Positions 7,875 through 10,339 of a DNA stretch of 33,874 bases are shown one piece after another. Within the stretch, counting starts at the first letter, position 1. Each line of letters begins with the position of its first letter. Both the position numbers and the translations under genes were made by a program. Source of the stretch: an uncultured delta proteobacterium (GTDB taxonomy: Bacteria > Desulfobacterota > Syntrophobacteria > BM002); the NCBI GenBank assembly GCA_963712115.1, contig CAVQGX010000029.1:1-33874 (forward strand), given 5' to 3'. The notes under the pieces were generated by a model. It was not told where the DNA came from, ran no database searches, and worked only from the letters and a program-made list of their open reading frames with translations.

Positions 7875-8057
7875 GGAGTACTGGAACATCAGAAATTTCA
7901 AATCACAAATCACAAATATCAAACAAATCACAATGACCAAAATTCGAAATTCCAAACCTGTTTCGTGTTTTGGTCATTGAGTATTGGAATTTGAGATTTG
8001 TTTGTAATTTGGTGCTTGGAGTTTGGGATTTCACTATTTCACTACTCCATTACTCCA
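7875..8057. repeat. Long imperfect inverted repeat built from about 7-nt units (MITE-like hairpin)
   Basis: AAATTTCAAATCACAAAT...AATGACCAAAA pairs with TTTTGGTCATT...TTTGGGATTTC; nested inside GGAGTA.TGGA / TCCATTACTCC arms. Confidence 0.7.
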
Positions 8058-8171: not shown

Positions 8172-8403
8172 TTAGATGGAGAAAAGATGATTATACAAAA
8201 TCAGGATGTAAAGAGGAATCGGGTAGTGGTTGTTCATTTTCTATCCGAGCAAAATCTTCCTCTCTCCCTGAGAAGGGAAGGCAAACAGGTGGAAAGTCAG
8301 CTAACTACCATATACGGTAGCAGTTTCTCGAACGACAAAGTTTAGATTAAAGTATGTTATATGAAGTCCCACTGGAATGGTGGGAGAGTTTACATTATAA
8401 CGC

Positions 8404-8859
8404 CTATAAGGCCTCCTCTTGTCAACGGATAAACGTCTCCCAGGAACGAAAAAGTTCTTTTTTCGTCAAACAACTTTGATGATGCCGTAACAAGGCTCAG
8501 CGTTCCGATTTTGTTTCCCGATCAGGTTTGCAGATACCGTGTCTGCACCAAACGCCTATTGAGGGTCATCTCCCGCTCAATGCGGGAGCACGGGCCCAGT
8601 TGCATTAAGGCCCGCACTTAGAAATCTATCCGTACCCGTATGCCGGCCCCTTCGATATGGCGGGCTCAGGTGAGTCACCAGTCCCAGTTACTGTGTGGGC
8701 TCGGGGACGGAGCAGAACACGGAAACCACTGTACCGACATCATACTTATATAAACTGACTGGGGCCAGGGTGTGTGTCCAATCGCTTTAGAAGGGCTCGA
8801 CAGACTGTCCCTGTCATGGTCCAGTTATAAGTAGGGCTCACACACTCCGCCCCAAGCTT
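8404..8859 (-). ncRNA. Predicted bridge/seek RNA region of the IS1111-type element (exact ends unknown)
   Basis: About 450-nt non-coding right end with segments matching target and donor junctions: TTATAAC (8830-8824), TAAAGCG (8789-8783), ATAGGCG (8559-8553), GTATC (8537-8533). Confidence 0.75.
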
Positions 8860-9906
8860 TTAGGCTGCACTGAGAAAGATGTCCATATCGAAAGCTTCCC
8901 TTCGCTTGAGCATGAAGTAGACAGCACGGCCGAGCTTGTGGGCTAAGATGCTCAGAGCTTTGCCCTTGCCGTGTTTTCTGACCAGACGCTTGTGATAGTG
9001 CTGGGCTCGTTGATTATCTATCAAAAAGCAAACAGCGGCTTCTGAGAATGTCCACTTGAGATGAACGTTGCCGATCTTTTTGTTTGTGGTGCCCTGCTTC
9101 TTTCCTGCCGACTCCCTGGGACATTTGACCAGACGACAGTAGGAGACAAAGTCCTGCACCTTGGGAAAGCGACTGATCTGGTGGATTTCGTACAGAAGCA
9201 TCAGAGCGAGAATCTTGCCAACTCCGGGAATCGTTTGCAGAAGATCCAATACCTCAGGGTTATGATCTCTGGCTGTTCTGAGAATATAGAGTTCAACATC
9301 CCTGAGCAGGCCATCATAGAAATCGAGTAACTGAAGGTCCACCTCGATGCTCTTGTTGGCACTGGGATCTGGAAAATGCTCTGCTACTCCTTGACGATTG
9401 CATCTGGAGGTGATTGCTTTGGGTAGTGGAGGAAGATTGTATTGACTGTTGGTGTTGTGAATGTGAGTGAGCAGCTCGGCGCGTTTGCGCTTGAGGTAGT
9501 TGCGCCGGCGCAGAAGATCCCGGGTGGAGCGCATCTGTCTAGGATAGACATAGGAAACGGGAAGTGTGCCTCCACGCAAAAGAATGGCAATCTTCTTGGA
9601 ATCGATCCTGTCGTTCTTGCTCTTGCCCCCATGGATGGCTTTCATGTAAAGAGCATGGCCCAGAACAAAGGGAATCGCCTCCTCGCTACACAGATCTGCC
9701 AGCCAGTACCACATGAATATGCACTCAACCGCAACAACGATGTCCTCACGGTACGGTGCAATGACTTTCAAGAATGATTCCGCTGAGGCTTTCCTGTTTC
9801 CGTGGAATAGAGTTTTGCCCGCCTGGTCCAGAATGCAAATGTACATGCTCCGGGCGTGAAGGTCGATTCCGCAGTAATACTTGTGCTGTTTGGTGTAAAA
9901 TCTCAT
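8860..9906 (-). CDS. IS110-family DEDD transposase/recombinase (ATG 9906, 348 aa)
   Basis: RuvC-like DEDD residues in GIDLH, AVEC and KNDRID; TIPGVG HhH motif; RESAGK serine loop; RBS AAGGAGG before ATG 9906. Confidence 0.95.
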   Translation of the reverse strand: MRFYTKQHKYYCGIDLHARSMYICILDQAGKTLFHGNRKASAESFLKVIAPYREDIVVAVECIFMWYWLADLCSEEAIPFVLGHALYMKAIHGGKSKNDRIDSKKIAILLRGGTLPVSYVYPRQMRSTRDLLRRRNYLKRKRAELLTHIHNTNSQYNLPPLPKAITSRCNRQGVAEHFPDPSANKSIEVDLQLLDFYDGLLRDVELYILRTARDHNPEVLDLLQTIPGVGKILALMLLYEIHQISRFPKVQDFVSYCRLVKCPRESAGKKQGTTNKKIGNVHLKWTFSEAAVCFLIDNQRAQHYHKRLVRKHGKGKALSILAHKLGRAVYFMLKRREAFDMDIFLSAA

Positions 9907-10339
9907 AGGGCTTCCTCCTTTGAGTGTAAGTGGTTTGTGGCGATAAACCACATATTACACTTCACTGGAGGAGGCCTTTATAAGTATCGCTTTAAATGTA
10001 ATCGACTTGAACAGGGTGTCAGATCCCTATGGTATCAGGTAAGCGAGACTCAAGATAAGAAGGGGAGATCTTAACTTATTGGTACTTCACAGGAATCAAG
10101 ATACATAGCAGCGATCTGCAATTTTGGAATAAAAGAATGATATGCAAAACTCAGTACTTTTTGAAGCTTTGCCCATATCGAAGGTGAGGAACACGTGCAG
10201 TGGGTAAGCTTAAAAGGACAAATTAGTAGGATCTCATTTATATAGCCTTACAATATCAGTAAGTTACAGATTAACAGGATCATCAGCTATGCAAGCAGAC
10301 ACAGGTATACGATTCCTTTTCCGTCCTCGCTCAACGCAT

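Follow-up and report, generated by a model that had tools for sequence, protein, structure and literature searches.

This locus raises the question of whether a single guide RNA of an IS1111-type insertion sequence can carry two target loops, each aimed at a different site. The window analysed here, a stretch of 33,874 nucleotides from an uncultured delta proteobacterium, contains a transposase gene followed on the minus strand by two tandem modules of similar letters. A preliminary description of these modules (8640-8840) had read them as two target loops of one RNA, the first matching the actual insertion site and the second predicting another target near CATATCGTTACTG, so that the element would be a naturally multiplexed programmable recombinase. 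The features on which the analysis turns are collected in Table 1.

Table 1. Features of the element ISa and of its predicted guide RNA, in coordinates of the window
Feature	Positions	Strand	Basis or remark
Whole IS1111-group element ISa with CG core at both junctions	8401..9989	-	copy comparison
Left subterminal inverted repeat AAGGCCTCCTC	9968..9978	-	exact inverted repeat of 8408-8418; 9 nt inside left end
Right subterminal inverted repeat GAGGAGGCCTT	8408..8418	-	11 bp exact versus left repeat; 4 nt inside right end
Transposase gene, 348 aa	8860..9906	-	ATG (9906) after AGGAGG; open frame back to GTG at 9951
TTGACA, possible -35 box of a junction promoter	8420..8425	-	sequence only; 18 nt before GATACT across the inferred circle junction
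Module 1, target-binding loop (equivalent of the short seekRNA)	8762..8853	-	outer stem, inner hairpin, two unpaired guide strands
Right target guide UUAUAAC	8824..8830	-	reverse complement of core G plus TTATAA of right flank
Left target guide UAAAG-CG + AU	8781..8789	-	last five left-flank letters plus core; AU = first two bases of the left end of ISa
Module 2, second loop with the layout of module 1; predicted first arm of donor-binding multiloop	8634..8713	-	covariance model R1
Module 2, 5' loop strand ACACAGUAAC	8687..8696	-	family consensus ..CUAAC
Module 2, 3' loop strand GCCAUAU-CG-AA	8651..8662	-	family consensus ..UUU-UG-A
Helix P0, 5' strand, predicted to close donor multiloop	8712..8718	-	RNAalifold pairing with 8541-8546
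Helix P0, 3' strand GCAGAC	8541..8546	-	RNAalifold; family GCAG(A/C)C
Right donor guide region GGAUAGAUUUCUAAGU	8616..8631	-	junction strand directly 3' of module-2 basal stem
Left donor guide AUAGG-CG-UU	8551..8559	-	last five right-end bases, core and first two right-flank bases

The boundaries of ISa were fixed by comparison of its copies. On the minus strand the element occupies window positions 9987 (left end) to 8403 (right end); the left flank ends in ...TTTAAAG (9990) and is followed by CG (9989-9988), and a further CG (8402-8401) precedes the right flank, which begins with TTATAATG from 8400. The insertion site had been rebuilt correctly in the preliminary description (...TTTAAAG, CG, TTATAATG), with the right end taken as 8404 where it is actually 8403/8401. 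A second copy of ISa, identical over 1588 nt and with different flanks, is found on another contig of the same genome (C9), and a third, with a transposase 99% identical, on a metagenome contig (L073). The same genome encodes a second member of the family, ISb, on contig C54 (11217-12878, L003), which is 74-77% identical to ISa. Insertion of ISa is sequence-specific and in one orientation, with CG at both junctions and no duplication beyond this shared core.

The predicted transposase contains the Pfam domains DEDD_Tnp_IS110 (PF01548, E = 4e-15) and Transposase_20 (PF02371, E = 2e-18) and scores 199 bits against the NCBIfam model of IS110 family RNA-guided transposases (NF033542, cut-off 140); chains of IS621 and ISCro4 are distant matches to it (IS621 E = 3.4e-6). 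Subterminal inverted repeats of 7-17 bp are described for the IS1111 group (Durrant 2024, PMC11208160), and those of ISa, at 11 bp, are subterminal and fall within this range, bearing the hallmark of the group. As in other IS1111 elements, the non-coding sequence downstream of the gene (457 nt, 8859-8403) is longer than that upstream (81 nt, 9987-9907). ISa is a new IS1111-group element, and its predicted guide RNA is of the ordinary two-part kind. The TTGACA near its right end is retained in the right ends of relatives and may be part of a junction promoter, by analogy with other IS1111 members (PMC11187229). Contigs, which rarely show such forms, contained no circle-junction joint in any of four sequencing runs. 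In one RNA run (X20), coverage was present on the flanking repeat and on 217 nt of the gene, with none on 8404-8859. No Rfam family matched the non-coding region, and when the full 459 nt were folded as a single sequence, z was -2.3 and the architecture described below was not visible from that fold alone.

The right flank of ISa (8338-8403; also C31:156249-156316) is a repeat unit with the hairpin CCCACCATTCCAGTGGG, the summed contig depth of which was 973 in one marine-sediment run, compared with about 20-50 for ISa. Many contigs cross this repeat unit into different left sequences ending in ..TT(T/G/A)A-G-CG, which are empty target sites; contig C31 carries such an empty copy, TTTCAG-CG-TTATAATGTAAAC. 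From the depth of the repeat and from the empty sites it follows that ISa targets a high-copy repeat. Elsewhere in the window, upstream of a uvrA-like gene, positions 7898-8017 form a roughly 120-nt, AT-rich, near-perfect palindrome with TTTTGGTCATTG arms that looks like a small inverted-repeat element; its only Rfam matches are weak ones to plant microRNA models (E = 0.03-0.5).

The letters of the repeated scaffold are as they had been described. On the minus strand, GAGCCC starts at 8839, 8798, 8702 and 8667. This hexamer is not enriched overall, since 16 copies are seen on both strands of the window and about 20 are expected; these four, on one strand and within 178 nt, form a cluster. The longer scaffold GAGCCC-N6-TAACTGG matches twice (8839-8821 and 8702-8684) against 0.05 expected, and none of 100 shuffles reached two matches. 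Its variable parts read TTATAAC and TAAAGCG in module 1 and CAGTAAC and CATATCG in module 2. The preliminary description can be followed in part: its IS1111-type element, with the guide RNA encoded after the transposase gene, is supported, as is the pairing of module 1 with both strands of the actual insertion site, through the flank matches given below, while the second target loop and the multiplexing drawn from it are not. The donor guides lie outside 8640-8840 and did not enter into that description.

In the centroid fold, both guide strands of module 1 are open between the outer stem and the inner hairpin. The 5' strand would pair with the top strand of the right flank, and the 3' strand with the bottom strand of the left flank and the CG core. 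The right flanks of the copies of ISa are TTATAATG (window and L073), TTATAGG (C9) and TTATAAGG (a contig of run X9), and the left flanks are TAAAG-CG, TTAAG-CG and TTTAG-CG. There are thus three full sites, TAAAG-CG/TTATAA, TTAAG-CG/TTATAG and TTTAG-CG/TTATAA, of the general form x(A/T)AG-CG / TTATA(A/G), and the guides of module 1 fit all three as well as the fourth right flank, from run X9. A target of the module-1 type would read TAAAGCGTTATAA.

Relatives were sampled by a transposase search, which gave 68 loci in species genomes and 351 in metagenomes, the best 80 of the latter being kept. Guides and junctions were parsed by anchored fuzzy matching into 109 rows, and 69 distinct elements have both modules; the guide map rests on about 100 relatives, and the transposases of loci with module 2 are 41-99% identical to that of ISa. 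The left target guide matches the flank in these relatives at 3.34 of 6 positions, compared with 2.07 after shuffling (0 of 2000 shuffles as high), with z values of 10-11 at the matching positions of a mutual-information scan and a peak at the expected offset of an offset scan (z = 11.9). The right guide of module 1 gives no peak at its expected offset; right-side tests have low power because right flanks vary little.

A common RNA plan is found in the relatives, consisting of module 1, a linker, module 2, a conserved UUUCUAGG, one or two hairpins, and a conserved CUCAAUA(A/G)G-UG-UUUGGUGCAG. Their junctions read LT-TG-ATACT... on the left and ...CCTTATA(A/G)G-(T/G/A)G-TTAGGC on the right, and the usual target of the family is ..T-TG-TTAGGC, with GCCUAAC as the right guide of module 1. 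ISa is exceptional among its relatives in having the core CG and a different target. Integron attC core sites have the forms G/TTRRRY and RYYYAAC, and an 'IS1111-attC' group exists. The left-junction dinucleotide is TG in 66 of 70 distinct sites and CG in three sites of ISa, the CG of locus L134 having been parsed as TC; the right-junction dinucleotide is TG in 42, GG in 25 and AG in 3 of 76, and the left donor guide nearly always has UG. The two junctions therefore differ in how the first 'core' position behaves. In ISb, the target guides are GUCUAAC and GAGUUG-AU, and module 2 has nearly the same letters (UCUAAC and GAUUUG-AU).

Module 2 is built like module 1, with a stem, GAG, CCY paired with RGG, two open strands and a capping hairpin, and the letters ..UAAC and ..YG-A are kept in both. 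The covariance model R1 scores 63.1 bits on module 2 of ISa (E = 4e-17). The module is not a special feature of ISa, for R1 has one match per locus in 114 of 150 related loci (47 of 70 and 67 of 80), a count that includes the 41 training rows, which match by construction. Most of the loci with no match appear, as an overall impression and not locus by locus, to be those in which the gene was matched in part or the contig ends at the gene. The three short basal helices of module 2 are 99% paired in 41 relatives, with compensatory changes (81 double-change cells, compared with 33.7 in shuffles), and 17 of its columns are invariant. Module 2 is probably an old duplicate of module 1, an idea that rests on their common layout and not on the model score, because the module-2 model matches module 1 weakly (7.8 bits, E = 0.32).

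Two donor guides were found beside and beyond module 2. The right donor guide consists of the eight letters before the UUC of UUUCUAGG; in 40 distinct relatives these match the reverse complement of left-end bases 3-10 at 4.67 of 8 positions, compared with 3.73 after shuffling (0 of 5000 as high). No signal in the mutual-information scan exceeds that of one of its position pairs (z = 13), which is in the predicted register, and the offset scan peaks at the expected offset (z = 7.9). This guide became visible only after anchoring on the conserved UUUCUAGG motif; a plain search of the relatives' non-coding regions for the reverse complement of the left end gave no common place. In ISa itself, 4 of 8 letters match in the family register, and a register shifted by eye, UUUCUAAGU, matches left-end bases 3-11 at 8 of 9 positions; the two candidate registers other than that of the family are 8624-8616 and TATATAAGTAT at about 8750-8740. 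The latter sequence, on the minus strand of the linker between the modules, agrees at 10 of 11 positions with the reverse complement of the first 11 bases of ISa. It is found in ISa only and is absent from ISb and the other relatives, and may be either a right donor guide that is additional or out of place, or a chance match in AT-rich sequence.

The left donor guide, in the block before GGUGCAG, is an exact 9-nt match in ISa. Among 41 distinct relatives the mean agreement is 6.29 of 7, compared with 5.61 after shuffling (0 of 3000 as high), and perfect matches number 17, compared with 5.8 in shuffles; the variants ATAAG, ATAGG, ATATG, ATACG, AGAGG, ACAGG and ATAGA track the right end. Like the right guide of module 1, it gives no peak at the expected offset in the offset scan. 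About 313 nt of non-coding sequence separate the start of module 1 from the end of helix P0, the outermost pair of which shows 20 double changes in 44 sequences; P0 is also recovered by the single-sequence fold. Because P0 and the basal helices are supported, the donor guides are placed in the junction strands of a multiloop of which module 2 is the first arm, and because these guides co-vary with the ends of the element, module 2 is best read as a look-alike arm of the donor multiloop.

We therefore favour, with a probability of about 0.6, a model of one bridge or seek RNA in which module 1 is the target loop, the donor guides occupy the junction strands of a multiloop, and module 2 is an arm of that multiloop that serves mainly for docking. 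The RNA would come from the minus strand, on the downstream side of the transposase gene; we infer both its production and its chemistry. Module 2 would form the first arm of the multiloop closed by P0 (8718-8712 with 8546-8541), and the joined ends of the element would be read not by the loop of module 2 but by the junction strands, with 8631-8616, immediately behind module 2, as the right donor guide and 8559-8551, ahead of P0, as the left one. Module 2 would mainly dock a second recombinase dimer beside the donor guides, its core letters at most touching the DNA. This docking role is proposed after the donor-binding loop of IS621, in which each loop holds one dimer (PMC13626964). The short RNA of ISEc11 alone was reported to be enough for movement (PMC11187229), so that in some settings the donor half may not be needed.

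Pure docking leaves one observation unexplained. Of 69 distinct elements, ISa and L134 alone have C as the first core letter of module 2, and the same two alone have C in the guide of module 1 (L019 was left out of the count, its apparent C being a mis-parsed string); by our own hypergeometric arithmetic, the chance of such coupling in 69 elements is about 0.001. L134, which belongs to another clade (module 2 at L134:1528-1605), is an independent second case of the coupled core change. It has CG in module 1, in module 2 and at the left junction; its left donor guide keeps UG, so module 2 follows the target side and not the donor side. In ISa, the RNA shows the change from TG to CG three times over, in both modules and in the left donor guide. 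The coupling argues that the loop of module 2 touches DNA.

The main rival reading, kept on account of this coupling although we regard it as tentative and somewhat unlikely, is that module 2 is a further, target-type loop, the third to read DNA. Such a loop would have a very short reach and make no choice of site by itself; its reading would cover only the central letters, with (T/C)G-A on one strand and G-TTA on the opposite one, at the target or at the left and right junctions, and possibly act in excision or strand exchange. The layout and kept letters that it shares with module 1 (..UAAC and ..YG-A) point the same way, as does the L134 module 2, which has CG like the target side, and there is a small excess of agreement of module 2 with left flanks. 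The 3' strand of module 2 matches these at 2.48 of 6 positions, compared with 2.01 after shuffling (0 of 2000 as high), and the agreement fraction is 0.23, compared with 0.177 (5 of 1000 shuffles as high); this excess (z about 5-6) is no stronger than the clade background from shared ancestry in the same scans. The coupling itself, however, is a signal at one position in two lineages. A scan of 112 nt around each junction, which has low power for sites that vary little, found no DNA partner of the module-2 loop strands above the clade background (z about 4-5); moreover, the target, the donor and both junctions are already accounted for by the four guides, those of module 1 and of the multiloop, and the short RNA of ISEc11 sufficed (PMC11187229). 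A fuller form of this reading, which seems to us distinctly unlikely, would give the RNAs of the subfamily three DNA-reading units: a target loop, a donor multiloop, and nested within it a second target-type loop that reads the core and its nearest letters. The nested loop might check the core or hold the junction in excision or strand exchange, and the coupled T-to-C core change in both loops of ISa and L134 would be the trace of this third unit.

The reading with which the question began, that module 2 is an independent second target loop giving two sites per RNA, with the second site of ISa near CATATCGTTACTG, is very improbable and close to refuted. It is invited by the duplicated scaffold and by module-2 loop letters that differ from those of module 1 and vary among relatives (74 distinct combinations), and the left flanks of two relatives, L033 and L042, fit module 2 better than module 1 (5 versus 3 and 4 versus 2 of 6). 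Among 51 insertions with both flanks, however, module 1 fits better in 42, the two modules tie in 6, and module 2 fits better in 3, which equals the null of 3.1 obtained with guides borrowed from other elements. Where the guides of the two modules differ, the flanks track module 1: 113 left-flank positions agree with module 1, 54 with module 2 and 68 with neither, and the corresponding counts for the right flank are 109, 33 and 72. The ..AGUAAC form of the 5' strand of module 2 is common to five distinct elements with different targets (ISa, L075, L076/L080, L085 and L089). The predicted 13-mer CATATCGTTACTG has no exact copy in the 4.9-Mb genome, in which there are 3 sites within one mismatch of the module-2 target and 4 within one mismatch of the module-1 target; the three near-matches are on contigs C18, C22 and C62, whereas the element copies are on C29, C9 and C54. 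The flanks of the other copies of ISa, to which the preliminary description had pointed as a place to look for the second target, are all of the module-1 type, as are all known sites of ISa (three full and one right flank). No co-variation of the module-2 guides with any insertion site was found beyond that of shuffled guides. Neither a second target loop nor a naturally multiplexed recombinase is supported by these results.

The 3' strand of module 2 was also noted in the DNA of the window, on the plus strand at 8883-8892 (CCATATCGAA, 10 nt, at the 3' end of the transposase gene) and at 10173-10184 (CCATATCGAAGG, 12 nt, 190 nt to the left of ISa). Because the plus strand is identical, the minus strand at both places is complementary to this RNA strand, and the 12-nt exact complement near the left end counts in favour of a second target; the site at 10173 nevertheless matches the left half alone, and alignment of the flank with the element is not above that of shuffles. 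The 12-mer CCATATCGAAGG occurs three times in the genome, two of these being inside the two ISa copies. Kinship between the left flank and the element was considered as the source of the match at 10173 and rejected (local alignment 21-24, compared with a null of 18.8 +/- 2.1, maximum 26). A search of relatives for similar matches to the 3' strand of module 2 gave just chance matches of 5-9 nt. The matches of CCATATCGAA and CCATATCGAAGG are probably chance, yet both are on the same guide-like strand.

That module 2 is a degenerating copy of module 1 without any current function is as improbable as an independent second target loop. Close relatives do show free drift of its loop letters outside the core, and R1 matches module 1 weakly, but a single copy has been retained at the same position in 114 of 150 loci with transposases 41-99% identical to that of ISa, compensatory changes preserve its helices, and 17 of its columns show no variation.

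ISa resembles the IS1111 elements for which a seekRNA or bridge RNA has been described (ISEc11, ISPa11 and ISKpn4; PMC11187229, PMC11208160) in its DEDD transposase, subterminal inverted repeats and long downstream non-coding region. The accounts of these systems further describe, as in ISa, a loop in which the top-strand match lies 5' of the bottom-strand match (PMC11187229), a longer RNA beyond the short one, with donor-binding letters in a multiloop, and insertion in one orientation into a repeated, hairpin-like site. The text of Siddiquee 2024 (PMC11187229) presents a short target-matching RNA and a longer RNA, the role of which is there said to be still to be established. ISa differs from the studied IS1111 members in its longer non-coding region (457 nt), and the literature passages covered here make no mention of an arm like module 2 for ISEc11 or ISPa11. 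The transposases of plasmid-borne elements are distant from that of ISa: there is one match at 65% identity, the other 246 matching plasmid records being below 60% and the rows listed at 24-32%.

The bridge RNA of IS621, as described in the texts of Durrant 2024, PMC11208158 and PMC13626964, likewise has a target part and a donor part, each reading both strands around a shared core dinucleotide, and two extra letters beside a guide that match the other DNA partner (handshake guides). Similar handshake-like letters in ISa are the AU that follows the left target guide and the UU that follows the left donor guide, although they stand beside the bottom-strand guides, whereas those of IS621 stand beside the top-strand guides (PMC11208158). 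Other differences are that the RNA of ISa is downstream of the gene and that of IS621 upstream, that the order of top-strand and bottom-strand guides is reversed, that the donor guides of ISa are in a multiloop and those of IS621 in a simple internal loop, and that the multiloop of ISa, unlike the IS621 loop, has an extra loop resembling module 1. The core is TG in the family of ISa and CG in ISa itself; in IS621 it is CT.

The natural retargeting reported for ISEc11 and ISXne4 (Siddiquee 2024, PMC11187229), in which guide letters are changed to fit another target and the scaffold is kept, has a parallel in ISa, where TAAAG-CG-TTATAA stands in place of the family target ..TTT-TG-TTAGGC. Unlike those elements, ISa has changed the first letter of the core as well, from TG to CG.

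Because the claim of a multiplexed recombinase fails, the finding itself is an ordinary one. What is useful in it is a sequence-level map of all four guides in an IS1111 subfamily of uncultured sediment bacteria, in which ISa is a clean natural example of retargeting that includes a changed core dinucleotide. The map poses a testable question concerning the longer seekRNA, namely what role the conserved second loop has and why its core letter follows the target loop.
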